Source of the DNA: an uncultured Candidatus Rokubacteria bacterium
GTDB taxonomy: Bacteria > Methylomirabilota > Methylomirabilia > Rokubacteriales > CSP1-6
Direction: 5' to 3'
Length of the DNA: 64,000 nt
Assembly: GCA_963789955.1 (NCBI GenBank)
Contig: CAWBMV010000006.1
Location: 442,265-506,264, forward strand
Part shown: piece after piece, positions 1,110 to 50,245 of the stretch
Layout of the letters: every line of letters starts with the position of its first letter
Numbering within the stretch: position 1 is the stretch's first letter
Notes under the pieces: model-generated
Database searches by the model: none
Told to the model about the DNA's origin: nothing
The model's input: only the letters and a program-made list of their open reading frames with translations
Position numbers and translations under genes: made by a program

Positions 1110-1744
1110 GACGGTCCTCGGCGTCTTCGCCCACGTCGACACGACGGTGCGCGCGCTCGAGGAGCTGCGCGCGCGCGGCTACCACGACCTCACGGTCTAC
1201 ACGCCGCTGCCCGTCCACGAGATCGAGGAGGTGCTCGAGCGCGACCGGCCGGTCAGCCGCGTGCGGCTCTTCACCCTGATCGGCGGGCTCACGGGAATCG
1301 CCTCGGCCTTCATCCTGACGATCTGGAGCTCGATGGTGTGGGGACTGGTCACCGGCGGCAAGTACATGCAACCGGTGAGCGGAGGCGGTCATCAGCGGCT
1401 CCTCGCTGCCGCCGTTCTTCATCATCGCGTTCGAGCTGATGGTGCTCTTCGCCGGGTTCGCGACGGTCATCGGCATGGTCGTGCTCGGGCGGCTCCCGCG
1501 GCTGCGGCCGAGCACGAGCTACGATCCGCGCTTCACCAACGACCGCTTCGGCGTGGCCGTCCACTGCGCCCCCGAACGCGCCGCGTCGGTCCACGAGCTC
1601 CTCCGAGGAGCGGGCGCCGAAGAAGTCAAAGCCGCGATGAAAAAAACGATCAGCCATCGGGTCAGATCGGGCGAGCGGAGCCACGCCGCACCTATCTCAG
1701 GCCACCCTCGGTCCAAGCCGGCCTCAAGGCCCCCGCTCCCATGA
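1099..1744 (+). CDS. actD: DUF3341-family alternative complex III subunit (ActD), frameshift near 1375-1385
   Basis: VLGVF...VYTPLPVHEIEEVL N-terminus; PFFIIAFELMVLFA and YDPRFTNDRFGV...GAEEV C-terminus; as assembled, the C-terminal tail is contributed by the 74-bp repeat. Confidence 0.75.
1668..1741 (+). repeat. 74-bp dispersed element, copy 1
   Basis: CGGGCGAGCGGAGCCACGCCGCACCTATCTCAGGCCACCCTCGGTCCAAGCCGGCCTCAAGGCCCCCGCTCCCA; colinear with copies at 9981, 10637 and 49213. Confidence 0.9.
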
Positions 1745-2248
1745 AATACGTCTTCATCCTGATGCTGCTGGTGGTCGGCGCCGCCGCCGGAGCGTGGGGC
1801 GCGGCGATCGTCGTCCGCTGGAACGACAACATGACGCACACCGCGCGGATCATGCCGGGCGAGCGCGTGTTCTCGATGCCGCCGGGCGTGGTCCCGCGCG
1901 GCGGTGATCTGATCATCCCCAAGGAGCAGCGCGACGTCGCGGCCAAGCAGCCGAATCCGGTGAAGGCCTCCGAGGCCTCCGTGACGATCGGCAAGGAGCG
2001 CTTCGCGACCTTCTGCGTGCCCTGCCACGGTCCCGAAGGCGAAGGGTGGGACGAGCGGGCTCGTCGCGACGAAATTCATCCCGACGCCGGACCTGACGAA
2101 CGCCGAGCTCCAGAAGCAGCGGACCGACGGCTACTGGCACAGCTACATCGTCGTGGGCGGGGCCGTGATGCCCGCGTACGGCGAGGCGCTGTCGACGCAA
2201 GAGGCATGGCACATCGTGAACTTCCTGCGGTCGATCGCCCAGAAATGA
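1741..2248 (+). CDS. actE: Monoheme cytochrome c subunit of alternative complex III (ActE), frameshift near 2045
   Basis: N-terminal membrane anchor, CVPCHG heme motif, then in shifted frame TPDLT...DGYWHSYIVVGGAVMPAYGEALSTQEAWHIVNFLRS. Confidence 0.8.
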
Positions 2249-3354
2249 CGGTCTTCTGGAGTCTCGTCGCCGCGCTCGGCGCGGTCGTGTTCCTGGTCGG
2301 CGCGAACTCATCCGACGCCCAGCAGGTCTGGTCGATCTATCTCGTGAACCTCGTGTTCTGGTCCGGGATCGCCGTGAGCGGACCGGCGATCGCGGGCATG
2401 ATGCAGGTCACCGAGGCGCGCTGGTCCCCGAGCGTGCGGCGCATCGCGCTGACGACGGCCGGGTTCCTGCCGATCTCGTTCGTGCTCTTTCTCGTGCTGT
2501 ACGCCGGTCAGACCGTTCTCTATCCGTGGGTCACGAAGCCGATCCCGGCGAAGGCCGCCTGGCTGAACGTGCCGTTCTTCTGGCTCAGGACGTACGTGCT
2601 CGCCGCGGTGCTCTTCGCCGTCTGCTTCGCGTTCGTGCGGGCGTTGCTGCGTGACGCGATCCCGCCGGACGACGAGCGCGAGCGCGCGCATCGCAACCGC
2701 ATCGCGGTGATCTTGTTGATGCTCTGGCTCGTGACGGTCTCGCTCTGGGGCTTCGATCTGCTGATGTCGCTCGACCCGAGATGGTACAGCGGCCTCTACG
2801 GCGGGTACTTCGCGGTGAGCGCGCTCTACACCGCGTTCTGCCTCCTGTCGATCCTCACGGTCCGGACCAATGCCCGCGGGCGCGCCTCGATCCCGCCCGA
2901 CGCGGTCCAGGACGTCGCCAAGCTGCAGTTCGCGCTCTCGATCGTCTGGATGTACTTCTTCTGGTCGCAGTACATCGTGATCTGGTATGGCAACGTGCCG
3001 GTCGAGACGCGATTCTTCATCCAGCGTGTCTTCGTGCAGCCGTGGATGACCCTGGCGTGGGTGGTGCTCGTGGTGGGCTGGCTGATCCCATTCGCGTATC
3101 TGCTCAAGCGACTCACCGGCCGGCCGCCGCAGCGACACGCCCCGCTCGTCGTGGTGGCGGTGTTCGGACTGGTGGGGATCTTCCTCGAGCGGGTCTTCCT
3201 CGTCTTTCCGTCGGTCTCATCCAGCCTGCACCTGCCGCTCACGCTCCGCGATCTCGCGATCACCGCCGGCTTCCTGGCGCTCTTCGTCCTGAGCCGCCGC
3301 TGGTTCTTCGGCTACTTCAAGCCCGTCCTCAATCTGCCGCACACCGGTCACTAG
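2245..3354 (+). CDS. actF: Polytopic membrane subunit of alternative complex III (ActF)
   Basis: About 10 hydrophobic segments; WLNVPFF, DLLMSLDPRWYSGLYG and YFFWSQYIVIWYGNVPVE motifs; ATGA overlap with actE. Confidence 0.8.
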   Translation: MTVFWSLVAALGAVVFLVGANSSDAQQVWSIYLVNLVFWSGIAVSGPAIAGMMQVTEARWSPSVRRIALTTAGFLPISFVLFLVLYAGQTVLYPWVTKPIPAKAAWLNVPFFWLRTYVLAAVLFAVCFAFVRALLRDAIPPDDERERAHRNRIAVILLMLWLVTVSLWGFDLLMSLDPRWYSGLYGGYFAVSALYTAFCLLSILTVRTNARGRASIPPDAVQDVAKLQFALSIVWMYFFWSQYIVIWYGNVPVETRFFIQRVFVQPWMTLAWVVLVVGWLIPFAYLLKRLTGRPPQRHAPLVVVAVFGLVGIFLERVFLVFPSVSSSLHLPLTLRDLAITAGFLALFVLSRRWFFGYFKPVLNLPHTGH

Positions 3355-3368
3355 TCCTTCGCGTCACC

Positions 3369-3506
3369 GGGGACCGAGGGGCGGGCTGGGATGCCCCCCG
3401 CGACCTGCGCGCGAAGACTGCAAAGAGACGAAACCATTCGCTTGCAGTTCAAGTTGCCGTACCTACACAGGTCGCGGGGGGCATCCCCAGCCCGCCCCTC
3501 GGCCCC
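3369..3506. repeat. Long inverted repeat (about 39-bp arms, 60-bp AT-richer core), MITE-like
   Basis: Left arm GGGGACCGAGGGGCGGGCTGGGATGCCCCCCGCGACCTG (3369-3407) matches the reverse complement of 3468-3506 except for two single-base indels. Confidence 0.85.
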
Positions 3507-3518
3507 CTGCGCGTGTAG

Positions 3519-3524
3519 TAGAGT
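3519..3524 (+). promoter_or_regulatory. Putative -10 box (TAGAGT) for a leaderless moeA transcript
   Basis: TANNNT hexamer 6 nt upstream of GTG 3531; no Shine-Dalgarno. Confidence 0.5.
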
Positions 3525-3530
3525 AACCGT

Positions 3531-4742
3531 GTGCTTACCGTCGAGGACGCGCGCGAAGGGATTCTTTCACGCGTAGTGCCGCTATCAATCGAGCGCGTCG
3601 AGATCATGGCGGCGCTCGGGCGTGTGCTGGCCGAGCCCATCGTCTCGCGGGCGACGATTCCGCCGTGGCCGAATTCGTCGATGGACGGGTACGCCGTCCG
3701 GTCCACGGACACGAACGGAACCGTCGAGCTCGCCGTCGTCGGCCGGATCATCGCCGGCACCATGCCGTCCCGAGCGCTCGGGGCGGGCGAGTCGATGCGG
3801 ATCTTCACCGGCGCGCCGCTTCCAGAGGGCGCCGACGCGGTCGTGCCTCAGGAGGACGTCGCCGCCGACGGCGACCGGGTCACGGTCCGCGGACGCATCG
3901 CCCCCGGCGCCTACGTGCGCCCCGCGGGGGAGGACGTTCGGACCGGTGACGTGGTGGTCGAGCCCGGCGGCGTCATCGGCGCGGCGGAAGTGGGCCTTCT
4001 CGCGACGCTCGGGTACTCGCAGGTTCGTGTCTACCGCCGTCCGCGTGTCGCGATCCTTTCAACCGGCAACGAGCTCGCGGACCTCGGGACACAGCCGGGC
4101 CCGGCCCAGATTCCAAACACCAACACGTACTCGCTCATGGCGCAGGTGATCGAAGCGGGAGCCGAGCCCGTCAACCTGGGCGTCGCGCCCGACCAGCTCG
4201 AGGCGATCATCGAGCGGGTGCGGTGGGGACTCAGGTCCGCCGACGTGCTCGTGACGTCCGCGGGCGTGTCGGTCGGAGAGCTCGATCTGGTCCGCGAGGC
4301 GCTCGAGCGGAGCGGCGCCGAGCTCCATCTGTGGCAGGTGTCGATGCGCCCGGGTAAGCCGATCACGTTCGGCACCCGCGGCACCCAGCCGGTCTTCGGG
4401 CTGCCCGGCAATCCCGTGTCCGCGATGGTGACGTTCGAGCTCTTCGTTCGCCCCGCCTTGCGACGGATGGCAGGCGCGCACGTGCTCGACCGTCCACGGC
4501 TTCGGGCACGCGCGATCGAGCCGATCGCGAACCCGGGATCGCGGCGCGGCTATCTCCGCGTCACCCTCAGGGAGGATGCGCAGGGCTACGGCGCGCAGCT
4601 CACCGGCGACCAGGGCTCGGCGATCCTGCGCTCCATGGTGCTCGCCGACGGGCTCGCCGTCGTCGCTCCCGACACCACGATCGGCGCCGGCGAGGCGGTC
4701 GACGTCATCGTGCTGCGCTCACTCGAGCCGAGAACGCGCTGA
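3531..4742 (+). CDS. moeA: Molybdopterin molybdotransferase MoeA
   Basis: PPWPNSSMDGYAV, RIFTGAPLPEGADAVVPQE, STGNEL, MRPGKP and GLPGNPVS motifs. Confidence 0.95.
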   Translation: MLTVEDAREGILSRVVPLSIERVEIMAALGRVLAEPIVSRATIPPWPNSSMDGYAVRSTDTNGTVELAVVGRIIAGTMPSRALGAGESMRIFTGAPLPEGADAVVPQEDVAADGDRVTVRGRIAPGAYVRPAGEDVRTGDVVVEPGGVIGAAEVGLLATLGYSQVRVYRRPRVAILSTGNELADLGTQPGPAQIPNTNTYSLMAQVIEAGAEPVNLGVAPDQLEAIIERVRWGLRSADVLVTSAGVSVGELDLVREALERSGAELHLWQVSMRPGKPITFGTRGTQPVFGLPGNPVSAMVTFELFVRPALRRMAGAHVLDRPRLRARAIEPIANPGSRRGYLRVTLREDAQGYGAQLTGDQGSAILRSMVLADGLAVVAPDTTIGAGEAVDVIVLRSLEPRTR

Positions 4743-4746
4743 GGCG

Positions 4747-4776
4747 TTGACAGCGTTTTCTTTCGCGTGCTACGGT
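4747..4776 (+). promoter_or_regulatory. Putative sigma70 promoter (TTGACA-N18-TACGGT)
   Basis: Perfect -35 at 4747-4752, -10-like hexamer at 4771-4776, ATG at 4785. Confidence 0.5.
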
Positions 4777-4784
4777 CGACACGG

Positions 4785-5848
4785 ATGAGCCGAGGCCTCT
4801 GCGTGTTGGCCGCGCTGGCGATTCTCGCTGGCGGCTGCGCGAGTCGGCGTGCGGTGGACCGACTCGAATCCGAAGTTGGGCGGCTCCGCTCGGAGCTCGC
4901 CGAGATGCGCGTCGCTCAAGAAGCCACCAGCCGCGGCGTCGCCACGATCACCTCCCAGCTTCAGTCGCTCGACATCCCGGCACTCGGAGACGAGGTCGGG
5001 CGGCTCAGCCGACGCGCCGATGCCAACGAGATGGCGATCGCGGCCACGCGGACGCAAGTCGAAGCCCTCACGCCCCCGACAGGCAGTATCGGGCGCGCCG
5101 ACTCCGACGCCGGCGCCCGCTCCAGCACCAGCCGGAACGACGCGGGTCCCTGCGCCGTTGCCGCCAAGCTCCGCCGTGACGTCGCCGGTGCCACGCGCCG
5201 TTGCCGCCCGCTCCGACGGTGACGACCCCGGTCCCGGCGCCCGCGCCGTCCGGTCGAGCGTCGATCTCGCCACCGCCGGCTCCCGCGCCGCCGCCGGCCG
5301 CGACGATGTTGCCGTCGCCGACGCTATCCCCGACGTCGGCGCCGCCGCCGGCGGTCATACCGTCCAGCGCGGCCGTCGAGAAACCTCGCGTGACGCCGCC
5401 GCCGGCTCCGGTGGTGCCACCGGCGGCGACGACCGTCACGCCGGCGAAACCCGCTCAGAAGGCCGGCGGCAATCCGGAGCAGGAGTATGCCGCCGCGCTC
5501 GCCACGTATCGAGCGCGCGAGCACGGGCAAGCGGTGATCGACTTCCTCGACTTCATCGCGAAGTATCCGAAGCATCCGCTGGCCGGCAACGCGCAGTACT
5601 GGATCGGCGAAGCGTACTGGGCGCAGCGAGACTACCGGCAGGCGCTCGTCGAGTTCGAGAAGGTGTTCGAGCACGGCCCACAGAAGGCGCCCGACGCGCA
5701 GCTCAAGATCGGTCTCTGCTATCTCCGCCTGGGCGACGTGCCGCGCGCGCAGCAGGCCTGGCAGCGCGTGGTCAACGAGTATCCGAAGTCCGAGTCGGCC
5801 GCGATGGCCCGGTCGCTGATCGCCACGCACTCCGCCGCGCGGCGGTAG
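4785..5848 (+). CDS. cpoB: CpoB/YbgF-like lipoprotein (coiled coil, Pro-rich linker, TPR), frameshifted in the linker
   Basis: Lipobox-like LAGGC, N-terminal coiled coil, C-terminal TPR FIAKYPKHPLAGNAQYWIGEAY...KAPDAQLKIG...YPKSESA. Confidence 0.7.
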
Positions 5849-5928
5849 CGCGTCGCGCCGTATCCGTTCGGGCTCTCTGGCGCGCTCGATCGCTTCGCTA
5901 TACTGAAAATCCGCGACGCGTGACGACC

Positions 5929-6822
5929 ATGATGGAGCTTCGTCCCGGAGACCCCCGCTACCCCGCGCTGCTGCGCGCGATTCCCTCGGCGCCCGCCCTC
6001 TATGTGCGCGGCGAGCTCCACGCCGACGACGCGCTCGCCATCGCGATCGTCGGCTCGCGGCGCTGCACACCGTATGGGATCGCCGCGACCGAGCAGCTCG
6101 CCTCGGACCTGGCCGCGCGCGGCGTGACGATCGTGAGCGGCCTGGCGCGCGGGATCGACACCGCCGCGCACCGGAGCGCCCTGGCGGCGGGCGGACGGAC
6201 CCTGGCCGTGCTCGGCTGCGGCGTCGACGTCGTCTACCCGCGGGAGAACGTGCCGCTCGCCCGCGCCATCGAATCCCAGGGCGCGATCCTGTCGCAGTTT
6301 CCGCCAGGCATGCCCGCGCTGGCCGGGCACTTTCCCGCGCGCAACCGCACGCTCGCCGGGCTGGCGCTCGGCGTCGTCGTGGTCGAGGCCGCGGAGCGCA
6401 GCGGTGCCCTGATCACGGCGGGATTCGCAGGCGATCTGGGCCGCGAAACCTTCGCCGTTCCTGGCCGAATCACGTCACCGACGAGCGTCGGCGCCAATCG
6501 ACTCATACAGGACGGTGCTAAACTCGTTACATGCTGGCAGGACATCGTGTCAGAATTGCCAGAGCAATGGCGCCGCGCCGTACGCGGGTTGTCGGCGTCG
6601 ACGGGCGAGGAGCACGCGCCCGAGAACGAGAGTGACGAGGGTCGAATGTTGCGGTGTTTGGCTCAGGATGAGCCGCAGCACATCGAGCAGCTGATCGTGC
6701 GCTCGGGATTCGTTCCCGCGCGAGCGGCGGCGTTGCTCGTGACCCTCGAGCTGGGCGGATGGGCCCGGCAGCTTGCGGGACAGCGGTGGGTCTCGCTCGA
6801 GACGCGCGCGAGGAGAGCGTAG
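5929..6822 (+). CDS. dprA: DNA-processing protein DprA
   Basis: IAIVGSR, IVSGLARGIDTAAH, FPARNR, EAAERSGALITA and GANRLIQDGAKL motifs; precedes topA; TATACT at 5899-5904. Confidence 0.92.
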   Translation: MMELRPGDPRYPALLRAIPSAPALYVRGELHADDALAIAIVGSRRCTPYGIAATEQLASDLAARGVTIVSGLARGIDTAAHRSALAAGGRTLAVLGCGVDVVYPRENVPLARAIESQGAILSQFPPGMPALAGHFPARNRTLAGLALGVVVVEAAERSGALITAGFAGDLGRETFAVPGRITSPTSVGANRLIQDGAKLVTCWQDIVSELPEQWRRAVRGLSASTGEEHAPENESDEGRMLRCLAQDEPQHIEQLIVRSGFVPARAAALLVTLELGGWARQLAGQRWVSLETRARRA

Positions 6823-9075
6823 GTGGCGGCGAAACGGTCGTTGGTCGTCGTGGAGTCACCGACCAAGGTCAAGACGATCCAGAAATATCTGGACTCGAAG
6901 TACATCGTCAAGGCCTCGATGGGCCACGTCCGGGACTTGCCGAAGTCACAGCTCGGCGTCGACCCGAAGAAGAACTTCAAGCCGAAGTACGTCGTCTCGC
7001 CGGCCAAGAAGAAGATCCTCGACGACCTGAAGAAGGCCGCCGAGAAGGTCGAAGCGCTGTACGTCGCCACCGACCCCGACCGTGAGGGTGAGGCGATCGG
7101 CTGGCACCTCGCGGAAGAGCTCGGCGTCGCCAAGAAGAACGTCTACCGCATCACGTTCAACGAGATCACCGAGCGCGCGGTCAAGGCCGCCTTCACGCAG
7201 CCGGGCAAGATCGATCTGAAAAAGGTCGACGCCCAGCAGGCGCGCCGCGTGCTCGATCGCCTCGTGGGCTACAGCCTGTCGCCTTTGCTCTGGGAAAAGG
7301 TCCAGCGCGGTCTCTCGGCCGGACGTGTGCAGTCGGTGGCGGTGCGGCTGATCGTCGACCGCGAGCGCGAGATCAAGGCGTTCCTGCCGGTCGAGTACTG
7401 GTCGCTCCACGCGCGGCTCAAGGCGGCCCGACCGCCGGAGTTCGTGGCCACGTTGAAGGAAGTCGCGGGCGAGAAGGCGTCACTCGGCAACGAGGAGACG
7501 ACGCGCGCCCTGATGGCCTCGCTCGACGGCGCCCGGTTCGTCGTCAAGTCCGTCACGCGCGGTGAGCGCCGCCGAAACCCGGCGCCCCCGTTCATCACCT
7601 CCACGTTGCAGCAGGAGGCGGGCAAGAAGCTCGGCTTCACGGCGCGCAAGACCATGACGATCGCGCAGCAGCTCTATGAAGGGATCGATCTCGGGGCCGA
7701 GGGCGCCGAAGGCCTCATCACTTATATGCGTACCGACTCGGTCCGGGTGGCGCGCGAGGCGCAGGCCGCGGCACGCGGCTGGGTGATCGCACGAATCGGG
7801 GATGAGTACGTTCCCGAGGCGCCGCCCACGTACCGCTCGCGCGGGAGCGCCCAGGAGGCGCACGAGGCGATCCGCCCCTCCGAGCTCAGAAACGAGCCTC
7901 GGGCCGTCGCGCAGTTCCTCTCCAAGGACCAGATGGCGCTCTACCGGCTGATCTGGGAGCGCTTCCTGGGCAGCCAGATGATGCCCGCGGTCTACGACAC
8001 GGTGGGCGCCGACATCGAGGCCGGGCAGTGCCTCTTCCGGGCGCAGGGCGCCACCCTCAAGTTCAAGGGCTTCACGGCCGTCTACGAGGAGAGTCGGGAC
8101 GAAGAGGAGCCCCAGCCAGAGCAAGACCCAGAAGGCCAGGTCCCGCTGCTGGAAGAGGGCGAGGTGCTGACGCTCCTCACCTTGGATCCCAAGCAGCACT
8201 TCACGCAGCCGCCGCCGCGCTTCACCGAGGCCTCGCTGATCAAGGCGCTCGAGGAGCTCGGGATCGGCCGGCCGTCGACCTACGCGTCGATCCTGGGCAC
8301 GATCATCAACGATCGGGGCTACGTGCACCGCGAGCGGCGCACGCTCACGCCGACCGAGCTCGGCATGGCCGTGACCGACAAGCTGATCCCGTACTTCCAG
8401 GACATCATGAACGTCGAGTTCACGGCGCAGATGGAAGACAACCTCGACAAGATCGAGGAAGGCGAGCGCAAGTGGGTCGACACGGTTCGGGCATTCTACG
8501 AGCCGTTCAAGCGCGACCTCGCGCGCGCCAAGCGCGAGATGCAGAGCGAAAAGGTGGGCGCGCCCACCGGCGAGACGTGCCCGGAGTGCGGCAGCGAGCT
8601 CCTGGAGAAGCGCGGGCGGTTCGGCAAATTCCTGGCGTGCTCGTCCTATCCGGACTGCCGCTACACGCGCAACCTCGACGGCAGCGGCCGCGCCGAGGAC
8701 GAGCCGGCGAACGAGAATTGCCCGACGTGCAGCAAGCCGATGGTCATCAAGCACGGGCGCTTCGGCAAGTTCATCGCGTGCTCCGGCTATCCGGAGTGCA
8801 AGACGACCAAGCCGGTCACGCTCGGCATCGCGTGCCCCGAGACGGGCTGCACCGGCCAGCTGGTCGAGCGCCGCTCGCGCAAGGGCCGCACGTTCTTCGG
8901 CTGCTCCGCGTATCCGAATTGCAAGTTCGTGGTCTGGCGGCGGCCGGTCAACGAGCCGTGCCCGAAGTGCGGGGCCGCGTTCGTCACCGAGCGCGCCCTG
9001 AAGAACCGGGTCGTCCGCAGCTGCGCGCGCGAGGGTTGCGACTTCGAGCGGGAGGTCGAGCTCCCGGTGACATGA
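6823..9075 (+). CDS. topA: DNA topoisomerase I
   Basis: LVVVESPTK, ATDPDREGE, SAGRVQS, LITYMRTDS, GIGRPSTY and C-terminal zinc ribbons. Confidence 0.97.
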   Translation: MAAKRSLVVVESPTKVKTIQKYLDSKYIVKASMGHVRDLPKSQLGVDPKKNFKPKYVVSPAKKKILDDLKKAAEKVEALYVATDPDREGEAIGWHLAEELGVAKKNVYRITFNEITERAVKAAFTQPGKIDLKKVDAQQARRVLDRLVGYSLSPLLWEKVQRGLSAGRVQSVAVRLIVDREREIKAFLPVEYWSLHARLKAARPPEFVATLKEVAGEKASLGNEETTRALMASLDGARFVVKSVTRGERRRNPAPPFITSTLQQEAGKKLGFTARKTMTIAQQLYEGIDLGAEGAEGLITYMRTDSVRVAREAQAAARGWVIARIGDEYVPEAPPTYRSRGSAQEAHEAIRPSELRNEPRAVAQFLSKDQMALYRLIWERFLGSQMMPAVYDTVGADIEAGQCLFRAQGATLKFKGFTAVYEESRDEEEPQPEQDPEGQVPLLEEGEVLTLLTLDPKQHFTQPPPRFTEASLIKALEELGIGRPSTYASILGTIINDRGYVHRERRTLTPTELGMAVTDKLIPYFQDIMNVEFTAQMEDNLDKIEEGERKWVDTVRAFYEPFKRDLARAKREMQSEKVGAPTGETCPECGSELLEKRGRFGKFLACSSYPDCRYTRNLDGSGRAEDEPANENCPTCSKPMVIKHGRFGKFIACSGYPECKTTKPVTLGIACPETGCTGQLVERRSRKGRTFFGCSAYPNCKFVVWRRPVNEPCPKCGAAFVTERALKNRVVRSCAREGCDFEREVELPVT

Positions 9076-9953
9076 AGGATTCGCTAGGCGCATTTCTCCG
9101 TCACCTCTCGCTCGAGAAGGACGCCTCGCCGCACACGCTCCGAAGCTACCGGACCGATCTCGTCGAGTTCGCGCACTACGCCGGCAGCGGCGATCCGTCG
9201 ACCTGGCTCGGGGACGTCGACACCCGCACGATCCGTGGCTACCTCGCGCACCTTCACGCGCGCTCGCTCGACGCGACGACGATCGCGCGGAAGCTGGCCG
9301 CCGTGCGGAGCTGGTTCCGGTTCCTGGTCCGGCGCGGCGTGCTCGAGCGGAACGTGGCGCGCGAGGTGAGGGGCCCGCGGCCGCCGAGGAAGCTGGTCTC
9401 GTTCCTGCCCATCGACGAGGCGATGTCCCTGATGGACGCCAAGGCGCCCGACGGCGCCGCGCGGGCCCGCGACACCGCGGTGCTCGAGATCCTCTACGCG
9501 ACCGGCCTGCGCGTCTCCGAGCTCGCCGGGCTCGACCTCGACGACATCGATCGCTCGCAGCAAACGGTGCGCGTCCTCGGCAAAGGCCGCAAAGAGCGGA
9601 TCGTGCCGTACGGCGGCCGGGCGGCGAGCGCGCTGGCCGCGTACCTGGACGGTCGCGGTGGTGACGCGGGGCCGCTGTTCCCCAACCGTCGCGGCGGGCG
9701 GCTGACGGTCCGTTCCCTTCACACGATCGTGCGACGGAGCGCGGCGCTGACCGGGATCACCCGGCGCGTGAGCCCGCACACCTTGCGCCACACCTTCGCG
9801 ACCCATCTGCTCGATGCCGGCGCCGATCTGAGAATGATCCAGGAGCTCCTCGGCCACAGCCGGCTGTCGACGACGCAGCGCTACACTCACGTGGGCTCCG
9901 ACCAGCTCATGCGCGTCTACGACGCCGCCCATCCGCGCGCTCGCGCCAAATGA
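9072..9953 (+). CDS. xerC: Tyrosine recombinase XerC
   Basis: [39 protein letters not shown] and [15 protein letters not shown]; dprA-topA-xerC-hslVU context. Confidence 0.92.
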
Positions 9954-10606
9954 GCCGAAAAACGAGCTCGAGCGAAGGAACGGGCGTGCGGAGCCACGCC
10001 GCGTCTGTGTCAGGCCACCCTCGGCCCAAGCCGGCCTCACGGACCTCGCTACAACAGTCCTCGCTACAACCATCCCGACAGATTAGATCGACGACCGTGG
10101 TCGCGGTGCGACATCGCGGCCAGGTGGCGGTCGCCGGTGACGGTCAGGTCTCCATCGGCAACACCATCGTCAAGGCCGGCGCCCGCAAGGTGCGAAAGCT
10201 CTACGGCGATCGGGTCGTGGCCGGGTTCGCGGGAGCGGCCGCCGACGCGTTCACGCTCTTCGCGCGATTCGAGGCCAAGCTGGAAGAGCACCGCGGCAAC
10301 CTGTCGCGCGCCGCGGTCGAGCTCGCCAAGGACTGGCGCTCCGATCGCGTGCTGCGCCGGCTCGAGGCGCTCCTGGCGGTGGCCGATCGCGAGCACTCGT
10401 TCATCGTCTCCGGAACCGGCGACGTCATCGAGCCCGACGACGGCCTGATCGGCATCGGCTCGGGCGGCCCGTTCGCGCTGGCCGCCGCGCGCGCGCTGAT
10501 CGCCAACTCCGACCTCGACGCCAAGACGATCGCGACAGAAGCCATGCGCGTCGCCGCGACGATCTGCGTATTCACCAACGACCACGTCACGGTCGAAGTC
10601 CTGTGA
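9950..10606 (+). CDS. hslV: ATP-dependent protease subunit HslV with a repeat-derived N-terminal extension
   Basis: TTVVAV (catalytic Thr at 10091), GDGQV, GFAG..ADAFTL, IGSGG and ICVFTN; ATG overlaps the xerC stop. Confidence 0.93.
9981..10054 (+). repeat. 74-bp dispersed element, copy 2 (in frame within the hslV 5' end)
   Basis: CGGGCGTGCGGAGCCACGCCGCGTCTGTGTCAGGCCACCCTCGGCCCAAGCCGGCCTCACGGACCTCGCTACAA; CCTCGCTACAAC is duplicated at 10044-10055 and 10059-10070. Confidence 0.9.
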
Positions 10607-10713
10607 CGCCGAGCCACGCCGCATCGTCGGCAAGAACGGGCGTGCGGAGCCGGGTCGCACCGATCTCAGGCCACCCCCGGTCCAAGCCGGCCTCAAGGAC
10701 CCCGCTACAATGA
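10603..10713 (+). CDS. Putative 36-aa repeat-derived mini-ORF coupling hslV to hslU
   Basis: GTG overlaps the hslV stop (GTGA) and TGA overlaps the hslU start (ATGA); [36 protein letters not shown]. Confidence 0.4.
10637..10710 (+). repeat. 74-bp dispersed element, copy 3 (hslV-hslU junction)
   Basis: CGGGCGTGCGGAGCCGGGTCGCACCGATCTCAGGCCACCCCCGGTCCAAGCCGGCCTCAAGGACCCCGCTACAA; its last A is the A of the hslU ATG. Confidence 0.9.
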
Positions 10714-12065
10714 CCGATTTAACCCTCACCCCCGCGCAGATCGTCGCCGAGCTCGATCGCTACATCGTCGGCCAGCAGAAAGCGAAGCGCGCGGTCGCCA
10801 TCGCGCTCCGCAATCGGTGGCGGCGGCAGAACGTCCCGCCCGAGCTGCGCGACGAGGTGGCGCCCAAGAACATCATCATGATCGGCCCGACCGGCGTCGG
10901 GAAGACCGAGGTCGCGCGGCGACTGGCCAAGCTCTCGCAAGCGCCGTTCTTGAAGGTCGAAGCCTCCAAGTACACCGAGGTCGGCTACGTCGGGCGCGAC
11001 GTCGAGTCGATGATCCGAGACCTGACCGAGCTGTCGGTGAACATGGTCAAGGCGGAGATGACGGCCCGCGTGCAGGAGCGGGCGGAGCAGCTTGCGGAAG
11101 ATCGCCTGCTCGACGTGCTGCTGCCGCGCCGGACCGAGCCGTACTCGTCGAGCTCGCTCGAGGAGGTCACGCCCGACGCCTCGCGCGAGACGACCAAGGA
11201 CAAGCTCCGCCAGCAGCTCCGAGCCGGAAAGCTGGACGACCGGCTCGTCGAGCTGGAGATGCAGCAGCAATCGCTGCCGATGATCGAGGTCCTGTCCGGC
11301 CAGGGCATGGAGGAGATGGGCATCAACCTCAAGGACATGCTCTCGAACATCATGCCGAGCCGGACCAAGCGCCGGAAGGTGCGCGTGGCCGAGGCGCGGC
11401 GGCTCCTGACTCAGGAGGAAGCCCAGAAGCTCGTGGACATGGACGAGGCGGTGTCCCAGGCCATCCGGCGGGCCGAGAACTCGGGCATCATCTTCCTGGA
11501 CGAGCTCGACAAGGTCGCCGGGCGGGAAGGGGGCCACGGCCCGGACGTCAGTCGGGAGGGGGTCCAGCGCGACCTGCTGCCGATCGTCGAGGGCTCGTCG
11601 GTCACGACCAAGTACGGGGTCGTCCGCACGGATCACATCCTGTTCATCGCCGCCGGCGCGTTCCACGTCGCCAAGCCGTCGGACCTGATCCCGGAGCTCC
11701 AGGGCCGCTTTCCGATCCGCGTCGAGCTGGACCCCTTGACGCGGGACGATTTCGTCCGCATTCTTACCGAGCCTCGCAACGCGTTGATCACGCAGTACGT
11801 CGAGCTCTTGAAGACGGAACAGGTGACCCTCCGGTTCGCCCCGGAGGCGGTGGAGGCGATCGCGGAGATCGCGATGCAGGTGAACACGAGCACGGAGAAC
11901 ATCGGCGCCCGGCGCCTCTATACGGTGATGGAAAAGCTCCTCGAGCAGATCTCGTTCGATGCGCCGGATCTTCCCGGCAAGGAGCTGACCATCGACGCCG
12001 CGTACGTGCACGACCGCCTGAGCGACATCACGCGGGACCAGGACCTGTCGAGGTTCATTCTGTGA
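10710..12065 (+). CDS. hslU: ATP-dependent protease ATPase subunit HslU
   Basis: [45 protein letters not shown] and ENIGARRL. Confidence 0.97.
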
Positions 12066-12937: not shown

Positions 12938-12948
12938 GGTCGACGGCG

Positions 12949-14142
<1,194 letters not shown>

Positions 14143-14144
14143 CG

Positions 14145-15068: not shown

Positions 15069-16266
<1,198 letters not shown>

Positions 16267-22396: not shown

Positions 22397-22476
22397 GCGC
22401 GACGTCGGCGCTGCAGGCCGTCGCGGGGCTGGGGCCCCGTCGGCCGAGGCGCGATTCTAAGTCAGGAGAGGCTGCT

Positions 22477-39776: not shown

Positions 39777-39780
<4 letters not shown>
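37907..39780 (+). CDS. korA: 2-oxoacid:ferredoxin oxidoreductase alpha subunit, frameshifts near 38068 and 38595
   Basis: [38 protein letters not shown] and [15 protein letters not shown]. Confidence 0.9.
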
Positions 39781-40805
<1,025 letters not shown>

Positions 40806-40827
40806 CCCGCCGCGCGGGGCGTTTCGC

Positions 40828-42274: not shown

Positions 42275-42281
42275 GGCCGCG

Positions 42282-43601: not shown

Positions 43602-44851
43602 TGGCCTCGGGCGCGCCCCACACCAACGTGCCGGATCTCGACGAGATCAGGAAGTGCGTGCATTGCGGCATCTGTCTTCCGCAGTGCCCGACCTACCGCG
43701 TGCTCGGCGAGGAGATGGACTCGCCGCGCGGCCGCATCTACCTGATGCGCGCGTCCGCCGAGGGCCGGGTAGGGTTGACCGAGACGTTCCAGCGCCACAT
43801 CGATCTCTGTCTCGGCTGCCGGGCGTGCGAGACGGCGTGCCCGTCGGGTGTCAGATTCGGGTCACTCCTCGAAGCCACGCGTGCCCAGCTGCGGCAAAGC
43901 GGACCGCCGGCGAAGCATCGGCTCCTGGAAGCGTTCGTGTTCGCGGTCTTCCCGGAGCCCGCGCGGCTCGGCGCCGCCCTCGCGGCGTTCAAGCTCTACA
44001 AGCGCTCGGGCGTTCGCGCGCTCGTTCGCGCGAGCGGCCTGTTGCGCAGGTTGCCGGGACTCGCCGCGATGGAGGCGCTGCTCGACGACGTCCCCGCGGC
44101 GACGCCGATGCCCGAGATGGTTCCGGCGCGCGGGCGCTCGGTCGGGCGCGTCGGGCTCCTCACGGGCTGTGTCCAGCGCCATCTCTACCCGAACGTGAAC
44201 CGAGACACCGCCCGGTTGCTCTCGCTCGCCGGTTTCGACGTCGTGATCCCGCGCGGGCAGGGCTGCTGCGGCGCCCTCGAGCTCCATGCCGGCCGGGCCG
44301 ATGCGTATGACGCCCGCGCGCGGGCGCTGGCGGCGGCGTTTCCCGCGGACCTCGACTTCGTCGTCACCAACGCGGCCGGCTGCGGCTCGACCATGAAGGA
44401 GTACGGCCACCGTGCCCCGGATCTCGCGGCCTTCGGGGCACGGGTCCGCGACGTCACGGAGGTGCTGGCCGGAGCCGACCTCCCGCTCGGTCCGCTCGAC
44501 CTGACGGTGACGTACCACGACGCGTGTCACCTGGTGCACGGCCAGCGCCTGCGGCAGGAGCCCCGTCAGCTCCTTGCGCGAATCCCCGGGCTCAGGCTCG
44601 TCGAGCTCGGCGAGAGCGATCTCTGCTGCGGCAGCGCCGGCATCTACAACCTCCTCGAGCCCGGCATGGCGCGCGAGCTCCTGGACCGTAAGCTCGACCG
44701 CATCGCCGAGACCGGCGCGCGGGTGGTGGCGGCCGCGAACCCGGGTTGCCTTCTCCAGATCGCCTGGGGGTGCCGCGAGCGCGGTCTGGACGTGGCGATC
44801 GTTCATCCCGTAGAGTTGCTGGCAAGAGCCGCCGATGCGTATCAGGCTTAA
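43601..44851 (+). CDS. glcF: Glycolate oxidase Fe-S subunit GlcF
   Basis: CVHCGICLPQCP, DSPRGRI, CLGCRACETACPSGV, two CCG domains and YHDACHL. Confidence 0.9.
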   Translation: MASGAPHTNVPDLDEIRKCVHCGICLPQCPTYRVLGEEMDSPRGRIYLMRASAEGRVGLTETFQRHIDLCLGCRACETACPSGVRFGSLLEATRAQLRQSGPPAKHRLLEAFVFAVFPEPARLGAALAAFKLYKRSGVRALVRASGLLRRLPGLAAMEALLDDVPAATPMPEMVPARGRSVGRVGLLTGCVQRHLYPNVNRDTARLLSLAGFDVVIPRGQGCCGALELHAGRADAYDARARALAAAFPADLDFVVTNAAGCGSTMKEYGHRAPDLAAFGARVRDVTEVLAGADLPLGPLDLTVTYHDACHLVHGQRLRQEPRQLLARIPGLRLVELGESDLCCGSAGIYNLLEPGMARELLDRKLDRIAETGARVVAAANPGCLLQIAWGCRERGLDVAIVHPVELLARAADAYQA

Positions 44852-45158
44852 GGACCACGCGAAGCTCCAGCCCGACAAGATGGCGAAGATCGCCCTGGCC
44901 GCCACGCCGCGCGCGCTGCTCGATCTCTACTGCGTGGCGCCCGGTCAGGAGCAGAAGCCGCACACCCACGGGGACCAGGACAAGTTCTACGTCGTCCTGG
45001 AGGGGCGCGGGCGATTCCGGCTCGGCGCCGCCGAGCACGCCCTGGAGGCCGGGGACGCGCTGGTCGCGCCCGCCGGTGTCGAGCATGGGCTCGTCAACGA
45101 CGGTGACGCGCGCCTGCTCGTCGTCGTCCTGGTGACGCCACCGCCGCCGCACGCATGA
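44835..45158 (+). CDS. Cupin-domain protein
   Basis: PGQEQKPHTH..QDKFY and GD.LVAPAGVEHG. Confidence 0.85.
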   Translation: MRIRLKDHAKLQPDKMAKIALAATPRALLDLYCVAPGQEQKPHTHGDQDKFYVVLEGRGRFRLGAAEHALEAGDALVAPAGVEHGLVNDGDARLLVVVLVTPPPPHA

Positions 45159-45883
45159 CCGATCGGCGCGCGTCGCTGATGGTCACGTGCCTCGGCGACC
45201 TCTTCTTCCCCGAAGTCGGCGTCTCGATCGTGCGGCTCTTGCGAAAGCTCGGCGTCACCGTCGATGTGCCGGCCGACCAGACGTGCTGCGGACTTCCGCT
45301 GTTCAACTCCGGCTATCACGCCGACGCCGCGGCGGTCGCCCGACGCACGGTGACGCTGTTCAAGGATTCCGAGCACGTCGTGGTCCCATCGGGCTCCTGC
45401 GCATGGATGGTCAAGCACGAGTATCCCGGACTCCTGGCCGACACACCGCTCGCGCGCGCGGCGAGTGAGCTGGCGGCGCGCACGCACGAGTTCTCGCAGT
45501 TCCTGGTCCGCGTGCTCGGCGTGACCGAATTCACCGCGGCCGTGCCCGGCCGCGTCACGTACCACGATTCGTGTCACCTCTTGCGCGGGCTCCACGAGTC
45601 CGAGAGCCCCCGGACGCTCCTCGGCAAGCTCAAGGGCGCCGAGCTGGTCCCGCTGCCGGGCGCCGACGAGTGCTGCGGCTTCGGCGGCTCGTTCGCGGTC
45701 CGCCTGCCCGAGGTGTCCTCGCAGATCCTGGCCAAGAAGCTCGCGAACGTCGAGTCGACCGGCGCCGGCTGTCTCGTCGCCTGCGACGCCGGCTGCCTCA
45801 TGCAGATGGGCGGCGGGCTCACGCGCGCGAAGTCGCGGGTGCGCGCGGTCCATCTGGCCGAGCTCCTGGACGGTGGGCGGTGA
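45155..45883 (+). CDS. lutA: L-lactate utilisation CCG-domain subunit LutA/LldE
   Basis: TCLGD.FFP, QTCCG.P.FNSG, YHDSCH and ECCGFGG.F. Confidence 0.88.
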   Translation: MTDRRASLMVTCLGDLFFPEVGVSIVRLLRKLGVTVDVPADQTCCGLPLFNSGYHADAAAVARRTVTLFKDSEHVVVPSGSCAWMVKHEYPGLLADTPLARAASELAARTHEFSQFLVRVLGVTEFTAAVPGRVTYHDSCHLLRGLHESESPRTLLGKLKGAELVPLPGADECCGFGGSFAVRLPEVSSQILAKKLANVESTGAGCLVACDAGCLMQMGGGLTRAKSRVRAVHLAELLDGGR

Positions 45884-47298
45884 GCGACGCGGAGCTGGCG
45901 ACTCCGTTCCGGCAGCGCGCCGGCGGCGCGATGAAGGACACGTTTCTCCAGGAAGCCCTGACGATCGCGACGACCAAGTTCATCGACCTCCGACGTGACG
46001 CGTTCGCGGGCTTCCCCGAGGGCGAGGCGCTTCGCGACCAGGCCCGCGCGATCAAGGAGGCGACTCTCCAGCACCTCGATCAGCACCTCGAGACCTTGAT
46101 CGGCAACGTCGAGCGCCTCGGCGGGCACGTCCACTACGCGGCGACATCGGCCGAGGCGCGCTCGATCATCGTCGACATCGCGCGACGGACCGGCGCGAAG
46201 ATGGCGGTGAAGTCGAAGTCGATGGCGACCGAGGAGATTCATCTCAACGAGGCGCTGGAGGCGGCCGGGGTCACGCCGGTCGAGACGGACCTGGGCGAGT
46301 ACATCATCCAGCTGGCGCACGAGCGCCCCTCGCACATCATCGCGCCCGCGATCCACAAGACGAAGGGCCAGGTGGCGGAGCTCTTCAGCCGGGAGCTCAA
46401 GCGCCCGGCCGAGCCCGATCCCGAGGCGTTGACCCGGATCGCCCGCGGCGAGCTGCGCGAGAAGTTCCTGCAGGCCGACCTCGGGATCACCGGCGCGAAC
46501 TTCGCCGTCGCGGACACCGGCACGGTCGTTCTCGTCACCAACGAGGGCAACGGCCGGATGGTCACCTCGCTGCCGCGGGTCCACGTGGCGGTCATGGGCG
46601 TCGAGAAGGTCGTGCCTTCGTTCACCGACCTCATGGTGTTCCTGGCGATCCTGGCGAAGAGCGCCACGGGGCAGAAGCTCTCCGTGTATACATCGCTGGT
46701 CCAGGGGCCACGGCGGGCAGGCGAGCTCGAGGGCCCCGAGGAATTCCATCTCGTGCTGCTCGACGGCGGTCGGATCGCGCAGATCGATGGGCCGCTGCGC
46801 GAGGCGCTCTCGTGCCTGCGCTGCGGCGCCTGCCTGAACGTCTGCCCCGTGTACCGGCAGATCGGCGGCCACGCCTACGGCTACACGTATCCCGGCCCGA
46901 TCGGCATCCTCCTGACCGCGATGCTCGAGGGCACGCCCGCCGTCAGGGACCTCGCCCACGCGTCGTCGCTCTGCGGCGCCTGCGCCGACGCGTGCCCCGT
47001 GCGGATCGACATTCCGCGCATGCTGATCGAGCTGCGCCGCGAGGTCGACGACAAGAAGATCGCGCCGTGGACGGAGCGGGTCGCGTTCAAGCTCCTGGCC
47101 ATGCTGCTCCAGCGCCCGCGGATCTACGGGTTCGCGGCGAAAGCCGGCCGGCTCTTGCAGCGGCCCTTCGCCCGTGACGGGCGCATCGGCCGGCTCCCGC
47201 TCTTCTTCGGCGAGTGGACGCGCACGCGCGATCTACCGCCCATAGCCGCGCGCACGTTCCAGGAGCGCTGGGCCTCGGAGAAGGATCTGCGGGCGTGA
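45880..47298 (+). CDS. lutB: L-lactate utilisation Fe-S subunit LutB/LldF
   Basis: KSKSM.TEEI, ETDLGEYIIQL, PSHIIAPAIH, CLRCGACLNVCPVY and SSLCGAC..ACPV. Confidence 0.92.
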   Translation: MSDAELATPFRQRAGGAMKDTFLQEALTIATTKFIDLRRDAFAGFPEGEALRDQARAIKEATLQHLDQHLETLIGNVERLGGHVHYAATSAEARSIIVDIARRTGAKMAVKSKSMATEEIHLNEALEAAGVTPVETDLGEYIIQLAHERPSHIIAPAIHKTKGQVAELFSRELKRPAEPDPEALTRIARGELREKFLQADLGITGANFAVADTGTVVLVTNEGNGRMVTSLPRVHVAVMGVEKVVPSFTDLMVFLAILAKSATGQKLSVYTSLVQGPRRAGELEGPEEFHLVLLDGGRIAQIDGPLREALSCLRCGACLNVCPVYRQIGGHAYGYTYPGPIGILLTAMLEGTPAVRDLAHASSLCGACADACPVRIDIPRMLIELRREVDDKKIAPWTERVAFKLLAMLLQRPRIYGFAAKAGRLLQRPFARDGRIGRLPLFFGEWTRTRDLPPIAARTFQERWASEKDLRA

Positions 47299-48038
47299 CG
47301 ACCAAGGCCGAGTTCCTGGCTCGGATTCGCGAGCAGGTGAGGCGGGCGCCCGGGCGGTTTCAGGCATCTTCCGCCCGACGCCCCCAGCATCCGGCCGCCG
47401 AGGCCGAGACGATCCGGCGCGAGCTCGCCGAGCGCTGGCCCGAAACGCTCGAGGCGTTCCGCCGTGAGTTCGAGGGCGTGGCCGGCGTGTTCCACAGGGT
47501 CGCCTCGATCGACATGGTGCCGGCCGTCGTATTCCGCATCGCGCACGAGCGTCAGGCGCGCGAGATGGTGACCTGGCACTCGGCGGCGCTCGGCGCCGAC
47601 CTGGCGCCTGCGCTCGGGGCCCGCGGCCTCGACGTCCATCCGATGCCCGCGGCGGAGCCGGTCGGCACCGCCGAGCGCGAGCGGCTCCGGGCGGCGGCCG
47701 CGCGGGCCGATCTCGGGCTGACCGGCGTCGACCTCGCCATCGCCGAGACGGGCACCCTGGTACTGGTGTCGGGCTCCGGGCGGCCGCGCTCGACGTCGCT
47801 GCTGCCGCCGTGTCACATCGCGGTCTTCGACCGGACGGCCCTGGTCGAGTCGCTGCGCCAGGTCGGCGTGTTCCTCGAGGCCTGGCACGGAGACGGCCGG
47901 GCGCCGTCCGGCGGCGCCTCGATCAACTTCATCACCGGTCCGAGCCGGACCGCGGACATCGAGCTCACCCTCACGCGCGGCGTTCACGGGCCCAAGGAAG
48001 TGCACGCGATCTTCGTGGACCAGCCGATCCGTGGCTGA
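47295..48038 (+). CDS. lutC: L-lactate utilisation protein LutC/LldG
   Basis: IAETGTL, SLLP..H and ITGPSRTADIELTLTRGVHGP. Confidence 0.9.
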   Translation: MTTKAEFLARIREQVRRAPGRFQASSARRPQHPAAEAETIRRELAERWPETLEAFRREFEGVAGVFHRVASIDMVPAVVFRIAHERQAREMVTWHSAALGADLAPALGARGLDVHPMPAAEPVGTAERERLRAAAARADLGLTGVDLAIAETGTLVLVSGSGRPRSTSLLPPCHIAVFDRTALVESLRQVGVFLEAWHGDGRAPSGGASINFITGPSRTADIELTLTRGVHGPKEVHAIFVDQPIRG

Positions 48039-48432
48039 GCGCTACTTCTCGGTCGCCGACGTGGAGGCGCTGATCCCGGAGCTGACGCGAGTCATGAAGC
48101 AGGTGATGTCCGCGAACGTCGAGGCGAGCGAGGCACGAGAGCGGCTACAGGCCGAGCAGCGCCGGATCGATCTGGCCGGCGGGGGCATCCTCGACCGCAG
48201 GGCGTGGCGCGCCGACAAGGACCGGATCGAGCGGCTGACCGCCGAGATGCAGCGCGGGCTCGGCGCGATCGCCGAGCTCGGCGGCGTGCCCAAGGATCTC
48301 AGCCTGGGCCTCGTCGACTTCCTGCACCTGCGGAACGGGCGCGAGGTCAACCTCTGCTGGAAGTATGGTGAGCGCGAGATTCGCCACTGGCACGGCCTGG
48401 ACGAGGGCTACGCCGGGAGGAAGCCACTCTGA
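48031..48432 (+). CDS. DUF2203-family protein
   Basis: YFSV..VEALIP, KDL..GLVDF and LCWKYGE..I.HWH..DEGYAGRKPL. Confidence 0.8.
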   Translation: MAERYFSVADVEALIPELTRVMKQVMSANVEASEARERLQAEQRRIDLAGGGILDRRAWRADKDRIERLTAEMQRGLGAIAELGGVPKDLSLGLVDFLHLRNGREVNLCWKYGEREIRHWHGLDEGYAGRKPL

Positions 48433-49178
48433 TGCCGTACGCCGCCATCCTGTTCGATCTCTTCGACACCCTGGTCCGCTTCGACCGCGAGCGCATGCCC
48501 GAGGTCGAGATCAACGGCAAGACGGTGCGCTCCTCGGCGGGCCTCCTGCACGCGATCTTGAAGACGCAGGCGCCCCAGGTCGGTCTCGAGCGCTGCTACG
48601 AGGCGCTCGGCGAGAGCTGGCGTGAGGCCGAGCGCCTGCGCTCGATCGACCATCGCGAGGTGTCGGCCTCGGAGCGGTTCGCGCACTTCTTCCAGACGCT
48701 GGGGCTCGACCAGGCCGCGCTGCCCAGCGGATTCGACCGCGCGTTGATCGACGCCCACCGCAACGCGCTCGGGGGCGCCGCCGAGTTCCCGGCCCACCAC
48801 GGTCCGCTCCTGCGCCGGCTCGCGGAGCGCTATCGGCTCGCGGTCGTGTCGAACTTCGACTACACCCCGACCGCCCTCGACATCCTGGAGCGCGCCGGTG
48901 TCGTCGGGCTCTTCGACACGATCGTCGTCTCCGACGAGATCGGCTGGCGCAAGCCCCGGCGCGACATCTTCGACGCGGCGCTCGGCCGGCTGGGCGTCCG
49001 CGCGGACGAAGCGCTCTTCGTCGGAGACCGCGCCGACATGGACGTGCTGGGCGCGCAGCAGATCGGCATGGACGCCGCGTGGATCAACCGCGACGCCGAG
49101 CCGCTGCCGGCCGGGATCGCGAAGCCGACCTACGAGATCCGCGACCTGGCCGAGCTGGCCACGATCCTGAAGCTCTGA
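48432..49178 (+). CDS. HAD-superfamily hydrolase
   Basis: FDLFDTL, VVSN, KP..DIF and FVGD...DV.GA. Confidence 0.88.
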   Translation: MPYAAILFDLFDTLVRFDRERMPEVEINGKTVRSSAGLLHAILKTQAPQVGLERCYEALGESWREAERLRSIDHREVSASERFAHFFQTLGLDQAALPSGFDRALIDAHRNALGGAAEFPAHHGPLLRRLAERYRLAVVSNFDYTPTALDILERAGVVGLFDTIVVSDEIGWRKPRRDIFDAALGRLGVRADEALFVGDRADMDVLGAQQIGMDAAWINRDAEPLPAGIAKPTYEIRDLAELATILKL

Positions 49179-49212
49179 GCCGCAAAGGGACATCTTAAGG
49201 AGCGCGGGAGTT

Positions 49213-49286
49213 CGGGCGTGCGGAGCCGGGTCGCGCCTGTCTCAGGCCACCCCCGGACCAAGCCGGCCTCGAGGTCCCCGCTACAA
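49213..49286 (+). repeat. 74-bp dispersed element, copy 4 (HAD-trxB junction)
   Basis: CGGGCGTGCGGAGCCGGGTCGCGCCTGTCTCAGGCCACCCCCGGACCAAGCCGGCCTCGAGGTCCCCGCTACAA. Confidence 0.9.
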
Positions 49287-49306
49287 CAAGCCGGTACAAT
49301 ACAGAT

Positions 49307-50245
49307 ATGACGACCACTCGGAAAATCATCATCATCGGATCCGGTCCGGCCGGGTACACCGCGGCGATCTACGCGGCGCGCGCCAATCTCGCGCCGCTCA
49401 TGTTCACGGGCCTGCACTACGGCGGTCAGCTCATGCTGACGACGCTCGTCGAGAACTACCCGGGCTTCGTCGAGGGGATCCAGGGCCCGGAGCTGATGGA
49501 GACGATGCAGAAGCAAGCGGCTCATTTCGGCACCGAGATGAACAGCGAGGACGTGACCGCGGTGGACTTCAGCCGGCGGCCCTTCGTCGTCACGGCCGGC
49601 CCGCAGACGTTCGAAGCGCAGACCGTCGTCATCGCCACCGGCGCCACGGCGAAGCTCCTGGGCTTGCCCGGGGAGTCGAAGCTGATGGGGCGCGGTATCT
49701 CGACCTGCGCGACGTGTGACGGTTTCTTCTTCAAGGACCAGAACATCATGGTCGTCGGAGGCGGGGACTCCGCGCTGGAGGAAGCGCTCTATCTCTCGCG
49801 TCTCGGCCGCCACGTCGACGTCGTACACCGGCGCGACACGCTCCGCGCCTCGAAGATCATGCAGGACCGTGCGCGCCAGAACCCGAAGATCGAGTTCATC
49901 CTGGACACGGTGGTCGAGGACGTCCTCGGCGCCGATTCCGGCAAGGTGACGGGCGTGCGCCTCAAGAACGTGAAGACCGGCGCCCAGCAGGAGAAGGCGG
50001 TCAATGGGCTCTTCGTGGCGATCGGCCACCAGCCGAACACGAAGATCTTCCGGGGCCAGGTCGAGCTGTTGCCGAACGGCTACGTCAAGGTCAAGCCGGG
50101 GAGCACCGAGACCAGTGTGCCCGGTGTGTACGCGGCCGGGGACGTGCAGGACTTCACGTATCGCCAGGCGGTGACGGCGGCCGCCACCGGCTGCATGGCC
50201 GCGCTCGAGGCGGAACGCTACCTCGAGGGCACGGAAGCTCGCTAG
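49307..50245 (+). CDS. trxB: Thioredoxin reductase
   Basis: GSGPAGYTAAIY, CATCDG, VGGGDSA and YRQAVTAA.TGC; TACAAT at 49295-49300. Confidence 0.96.
   Translation: MTTTRKIIIIGSGPAGYTAAIYAARANLAPLMFTGLHYGGQLMLTTLVENYPGFVEGIQGPELMETMQKQAAHFGTEMNSEDVTAVDFSRRPFVVTAGPQTFEAQTVVIATGATAKLLGLPGESKLMGRGISTCATCDGFFFKDQNIMVVGGGDSALEEALYLSRLGRHVDVVHRRDTLRASKIMQDRARQNPKIEFILDTVVEDVLGADSGKVTGVRLKNVKTGAQQEKAVNGLFVAIGHQPNTKIFRGQVELLPNGYVKVKPGSTETSVPGVYAAGDVQDFTYRQAVTAAATGCMAALEAERYLEGTEAR

Follow-up and report, generated by a model that had tools for sequence, protein, structure and literature searches.

Mycobacterial interspersed repetitive units (MIRUs) are, according to the available text of two accounts, repeats of ~40-100 bp that are present in 40-50 copies per genome and occupy intergenic positions within operons, where they are placed at start codons, carry an internal open reading frame (ORF) coupled at -4 nt and are accompanied by short direct repeats (PMC3184786, PMC12548453). 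The available portion of one account also gives them an imperfect terminal inverted repeat (TIR) and a G-C stem (PMC3184786); the other, a 2025 review, states in its accessible text that MIRUs seem mobile, and covers ribosome hand-over models and short delivery ORFs (PMC12548453). Rickettsia palindromic elements (RPEs) are, in the accessible part of their description, palindromic with long stems and TIRs (PMC2229807). We have analyzed a 64,000-nt stretch of contig CAWBMV010000006.1 from an uncultured Candidatus Rokubacteria bacterium (hereafter, the window), in which four copies of a short repeat lie at gene junctions. Judged from its sequence and siting, this Rokubacteria element appears to behave like the MIRUs and, like RPEs, to insert in genes as well. 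We consider it probable that a single Rokubacteria clade harbors this dispersed repeat as a likely selfish, non-autonomous element, which appears at gene starts and disappears from them again, and that selection likely retains only those alleles that leave both neighbors translatable. The sequence family is apparently undescribed so far, as no account of the repeat in Rokubacteria was found in the literature searched, a scope that excluded subscription papers and supplements.

The element was collected by an iterated hidden Markov model (HMM) search, in which hits were counted at E<=1e-3 and clusters at E<=1e-5. Its unit of ~66 nt runs from CGGAGCC to CCCGCTACAA, with a fixed 3' end and a ragged 5' side made of degenerate 27-36-nt partial repeats; 15-nt repeats of the element's 3' end are also seen, and head-to-tail arrays occur. 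The 37 tandem periods divide into 25 multiples of three (66 nt in 15 cases), 7 of class 2 mod 3 and 5 of class 1 mod 3. The source genome (G000), a 6.77-Mb metagenome-assembled genome (MAG) that is 87% complete, contains 55 HMM matches in 40 clusters, and in 18 of the 40 a TGA comes directly after the core, making the core's final A the first letter of an ATG. Across three cluster sets (one from G000, one of loci picked by pattern in relatives, and one of 40 loci in other genera), a start codon stands directly at the element's 3' end in 71 of 128 sense clusters. The element occurs in all 16 genus relatives, in 3 of 8 other family genera and in none of 16 genomes at order level. In the comparison of orthologous junctions, a row at order level (L039) that a permissive regular expression had caught was dropped as not being the element. 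A shorter pattern detected it in 51 of 121 family genomes and 21 of 48 genera, and the reversed-pattern control gave 0 matches in every genome listed. The repeat is far beyond chance. When a strict 43-letter pattern was run against 185,579 species, 78 loci were returned, all titled Rokubacteria or Methylomirabilota bar one Binatia bin, one Actinobacteria and one uncultured bacterium. An Rfam search, which had been proposed in a first-pass annotation made from the sequence alone, gave no match over the element at the gathering score. Viral contigs gave 0 element matches, phages held no element and plasmids gave chance matches only (E>=0.08).

The first-pass annotation had also suggested that orthologous junctions be compared for empty sites, and this comparison uncovered empty, filled, inverted and remnant alleles at the same junctions. 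An empty allele is a plain NTGA stop/start overlap; a filled allele consists of NTGA, a variable 5' part, a core ending in CCCGCTACAA, and TGA. At hslV/hslU, the outgroups and four genus genomes are empty, with a plain GTGA overlap, and the element-type alleles comprise eight forward, one inverted, one remnant and one near-empty in-frame remnant. Because these states are interleaved on a three-gene tree, gains or losses recur at this junction. Empty and filled alleles are found at xerC/hslV and actD/actE too. For the hslV/hslU copy of the window (copy 3), a precise empty allele was recovered from two DNA runs (X1, X3) and one RNA run (X15), which join 10603 to 10711 with the loss of 107 bp, four letters fitting either side of the joint; the X15 contig is 351 nt long and ~96% identical. 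Splicing of copy 3 was considered and rejected, since the joined form is also present in the DNA runs.

The term relay is used here for a chain of stop/start overlaps, each of -4 (or -1), that leads without a break from the upstream stop into the downstream frame. At the three coupled junctions, 23 of 25 element alleles retain such a chain, by varied routes. At xerC/hslV the relay is intact in 10 of 10 element alleles: six are fused to HslV, three pass through one mutation-made internal GTGA and one passes through two, and the length class of the insert changes to suit each route. The relay is kept in 7/9 alleles at hslV/hslU (6/8 forward alleles and the inverted allele) and is broken in G012, in G011 and in the G014 remnant. 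At actD/actE, 23 of 23 loci relay, 6 with the element, 7 with mini-ORFs of 5-6 codons and 10 directly.

Bias in stop, frame and orientation is also evident across the three cluster sets. The upstream stop is DTGA in 18/21 (G000), 28/30 (relatives) and 13/22 (other genera) same-strand clusters, against 1049/2542 pairs in element-free controls and 202/638 for controls with gaps of 60-400 nt. Given DTGA, a relay is found at 47/59 element clusters versus 67/202 control gaps, and among 44 inserts bracketed by TGA, 34 have a length of 2 mod 3, the one class that allows a relay. The p-values for the DTGA excess (pooled p=2e-11) and the length class (p=3e-9) are overstated, because relatives and orthologous sites are not independent. 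Sense orientation accounts for 32/36, 61/69 and 35/40 classifiable clusters in the three sets. Gene calls came from a hexamer model (75% coding density) and its start positions are rough; with hexamer calls the downstream side was unclassifiable in 4/40 G000 clusters and 14/83 others. The proposal of the first-pass annotation, a lineage-specific, non-polar insertion that preserves stop/start coupling, is thus upheld by the allele series and by the strong orientation and frame bias, and genome-wide the copies are not random in strand and frame relative to their neighbors.

A filled NTGA overlap has TGA on either side of the insert: the upstream gene retains its stop, and the old NTG opens a throw-away frame through the element. 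The element's last A, followed by TG, forms a new downstream ATG, overlapped by the TGA of the throw-away frame. Where a length change or an internal stop arises, the chain is saved either by fusion at the N-terminus or through additional internal NTGA hops. We hypothesize that ribosomes are passed along the chain by termination-reinitiation, that the relay peptide is functionless and that frame-breaking alleles are purged. In-frame protein linkers (in either orientation), tRNA 3' flanks and leaderless promoters are rarer, tolerated sites, and at leaderless sites the 3' TACAAT likely replaces the -10 box. For the insertion itself, our preferred guess is that an enzyme, either of the host or acting in trans, brings copies in at the TG(A) step and that slippage then expands or deletes modules.

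Several observations weigh against a selfish repeat that inserts at overlaps and is then pruned by selection. On the tree, empty alleles within the genus may have lost the element instead of never having held it. The flank common to 44 sites is TGA only, with longer duplications not above those of shuffled pairs, so target duplication and a crossover core are indistinguishable. The relay fails at 12/59 DTGA sites; at least one failure, at PurD, is a downstream frameshift in an error-prone assembly, with the PurD start correct. DTGA is ~eightfold more frequent in spacers than at direct overlaps (3079 versus 403, with gene calls that are rough), which means that plain tetranucleotide targeting does not explain the site preference and that the preference for gene starts requires either strong purging or an expression-linked targeting step. 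Y1_Tnp, RVT_1 and Transposase_20 (IS110) were not found in the 87% complete G000, Y1_Tnp was found in 0/8 genus genomes, and the ends of two insertion sequence (IS)-like elements and of seven DUF222 loci are unlike the element. The DUF222 genes of G000 lie at C3:85505, C3:48350, C37:156828, C8:44897, C1:22709, C4:36729 and C13:38716. The two IS-like elements are themselves repeated (C17:6397-7699 and C6:343625-344927; C16:4879, C23:35580 and C37:70036), one pair being 100% identical.

A bolder account, and in our view a rather improbable one, is that the element needs neither terminal repeats nor its own transposase to spread and takes an expression-tied route, such as a small circular or RNA-templated intermediate that enters translated stop/start overlaps. 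If true, such spread would account for the fixed 3' end, the ragged 5' end, the head-to-tail multimers, the sense bias and the excess of overlap sites relative to ordinary intergenic TGA. The element's 3' end would then amount to a built-in repair kit that supplies a new ATG or -10 box, and there would be a general class of start-codon-riding elements, MIRUs included.

Conserved and variable blocks of the element alternate regardless of codon position, and between species the core is 85-93% identical and the 5' flanks diverge. Together with the start codon at the 3' end in 71/128 sense clusters, and with TACAAT 5-8 nt before the start in 6/128 (a minor mode) and before trxB, these features are in keeping with a domesticated cis-regulatory cassette (a protein-binding site, promoter or translation tuner) that is kept before housekeeping genes and has the relay as a by-product. 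We think this unlikely in view of the patchy presence at junctions of close relatives, the precise empty alleles, the functionally unrelated neighboring genes, the inverted copies, the copies within coding linkers and the lack of a fold. A folded RNA had been suggested from internal sequence pairs and is not borne out. Single-strand z values of -0.85 to +0.92 are no better than shuffles, the consensus fold of 86 copies is empty (0 kcal/mol, structure conservation index (SCI) 0; SCI 0 and 0.02 in tests), and the four-copy consensus has no real covariation. Alignment A2 was left out of the covariation analysis, as 61 of its 65 rows had been chosen by exact pattern.

An element of the repetitive extragenic palindrome (REP)/REPIN or MITE (miniature inverted-repeat transposable element) type, moved by a known transposase (RAYT or DDE) and biased in frame through purging alone, seems quite unlikely to us. 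The reverse strand opens TTGTAG, like the GTAG-tagged REPs in the accessible part of their description (PMC3733652), and RAYT-like Y1_Tnp genes are present in other genera of the family. The element has no stable hairpin and no TIR, its 5' end being variable; Y1_Tnp was not found in searched genomes of the element-carrying genera g1, g3, g6 and g9, and 0/29 Y1_Tnp loci of the family have the element, which in incomplete MAGs is not proof of absence. Y2_Tnp had no match in G000, an uninformative result as the control was likewise silent, and one DDE_Tnp_1 fragment is present there. A CTAC direct repeat, which would also suit this type, flanks an empty/filled pair (G000 C3:53132 versus C4) of a second repeat family. 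That family has the core GGCCCCAGCCCCGCGA, is ~56-60 bp long, forms tandem arrays and is represented in the window at 22400-22455 and in G000 by ~97 HMM hits. A third family (36 HMM hits in G000, for instance at C1:324239, and no exact motif match in the window) has a conserved core of ~95 nt inside long, copy-specific perfect inverted arms and is a candidate structured RNA or mobile hairpin.

That the SGHPRxKPASR peptide is itself functional, e.g., as a stalling or signalling peptide, is hardly credible. In its favor, forward intergenic copies usually relay in this frame. Against it, non-synonymous variation is common, conservation is flat by codon position (0.84/0.90/0.87), the consensus is open in 5/6 frames, relays turn to other frames or to the reverse strand where geometry demands it, and no Pfam family matches. 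One privileged peptide frame had been claimed from the window copies, and the claim does not extend to the family, in which three forward frames and one reverse frame are used; the single frame of the window copies is an outcome of geometry, not of peptide function. Inverted intragenic copies, read in the VVAG frame, occur in hisH, in two ABC-transporter linkers, in a FAD oxidase and in one ORF (L119), and forward intragenic copies use another frame in uvrA, an AMP-binding enzyme and others. Of the 12 genus genomes that hold the full segment, 11 have the inverted element as an in-frame insert in HisH (G000 C34:286152-286904; L178, L188-L199), as does G021, and G006 has a short loop; across most of a genus, HisH is 20-55 residues longer through the repeat. 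Two domains are separated by an in-frame element in L126 (a permease and an ATPase) and in L243, possibly representing gene fusions made by the element. Inverted copies also adjoin tRNA 3' ends at G000 C1:454310 and C34:297318, the C1 tRNA being recognized by eye. For Rokubacteria, the element is a warning to annotation, as it gives rise to spurious small ORFs and false N-termini.

The four window copies are, as first reported, all on the + strand and gap-free; their mean column identity including flanks is 79%. The 74-bp element originally delineated is real and corresponds to the conserved 3' core only, the insert of copy 3 being 107 bp. Among the neighboring genes, xerC, hslV, hslU, the HAD hydrolase and trxB were confirmed by NCBIfam; for actD/actE the one curated match is NrfD, on the upstream gene, and the labels otherwise follow the first-pass annotation and gene order.

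The core of copy 1 (1668..1741) lies at the actD/actE junction. Its TGA does overlap the actE ATG, as had been noted, and as assembled ActD reads through the element, unlike actD of relatives, which stops at ATGA. A bridging frame of 35 codons runs from ATGA to ATGA (1637..1744, +). It stands as a mini-ORF of its own only if the assembly has one base too many at 1633, which is probable from reads and relatives. Relative to other contigs, the window has single-base excesses at 961, 1389-1390, 1633, 2041, 5085 and 5195; these are likely assembly errors, and those from 961 to 2041 match the act-gene frameshifts. The core of copy 2 (9981..10054, xerC/hslV) is followed by a partial repeat of the 3' module. 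The ATG at 9950 was correctly placed over the xerC TGA, and its ORF (9950..10606, +) continues into HslV, so the element forms an N-terminal extension before the TTVVAVR motif that is likely removed as a propeptide. One metatranscriptome contig (X16 record 22) covers xerC, copy 2 and hslV, with DNA carry-over possible. The full insert of copy 3 (10604..10714, +; 107 bp, delimited by the joined contigs of X1, X3 and X15) has TGAC at both ends (10604-10607 and 10711-10714) and a degenerate 5' module before its core (10637-10710). The mini-ORF described between hslV and hslU is the relay itself, with 36 codons from the GTGA of the hslV stop to the ATGA of the hslU start (10603..10713, +).

Copy 4 (core 49213..49286, +) lies at HAD/trxB. 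The frame from GTG 49218 to a TGA overlapping the trxB ATG is present as described; the coupling holds downstream only, the HAD stop being CTGA, ~40 nt away. Among 15 orthologous junctions, the HAD stop is DTGA in 0/15 (CTGA in 12/15) and a relay exists in 0/15. At 49295..49309 (+), TACAAT, 6 nt and the trxB ATG form a leaderless-type -10 geometry that may act as a promoter. TANNNT stands exactly 6 nt before the trxB ATG in three filled, one remnant and two empty alleles, the hexamer being element-type TACAAT in filled alleles and part of TATCCT-6 nt-ATG in the empty alleles of relatives. TANNNT is enriched in G000 6-8 nt before starts (118, 101 and 76 genes, versus 13-14 at 2-5 nt; n=4478), a distribution that suggests leaderless transcription in Rokubacteria. 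A sigma-70 scan at copy 4 found no -35/-10 pair, so the leaderless reading stands on -10 geometry only. Insertion of copy 4 likely displaced a leaderless -10 box and supplied another.

The G000 bin has long duplicated segments that are 85-97% identical (contigs such as C33/C1, C18/C22, C23/C34 and C4/C3). It holds a second strain or close species, so element copy counts may be slightly inflated.

Among described systems, MIRUs come closest. They went unnamed in the first-pass annotation, which had offered RPEs as a precedent, an analogy that fits the intragenic copies and only those. The MIRU family reportedly goes back to Supply et al. in 1997, and MIRU tandem arrays have a variable number tandem repeat (VNTR) aspect. 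Like MIRUs, the Rokubacteria element has a unit (66 nt) within 40-100 bp and a genomic copy number in the tens (55 hits, forming 40 clusters), an internal ORF that follows gene orientation and overlaps its neighbors at -4 nt, empty sites in relatives, TGA(C) on both sides, and tandem arrays. It differs in belonging to another phylum, in lacking a TIR and a G-C stem, and in its inverted and intragenic in-frame copies, compensating multi-hop relays and leaderless -10 mode; the strict 43-letter pattern, which probes close similarity only, gave no Mycobacterium-titled hit. Streptococcal BOX elements are modular repeats with a variable number of sub-modules, as in the Rokubacteria element, and we know of no targeting of stop/start overlaps by them. 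With RPEs the element shares the tolerance of a small repeat in frame in conserved protein genes, on the accessible text (PMC2229807), but it has no fold, and most of its copies are at stop/start junctions. With GTAG-tagged REPs and REPINs it shares a reverse-strand GTAG near one end, dispersal and lineage specificity; it differs, as far as the accessible text describes them, in having no conserved palindrome, in lying upstream of genes, where REPs lie downstream, and in its strong orientation (PMC3733652), and no RAYT was found in the carriers searched. MIRU-type spread and siting at coupled junctions have stood as a question since 1997. To this question the Rokubacteria element brings a natural series of empty, filled, inverted, tandem, remnant and compensated multi-hop alleles, spread over at least 21 genera, which is comparative evidence that the handing-over of ribosomes, and not the peptide or an RNA structure, is under selection.

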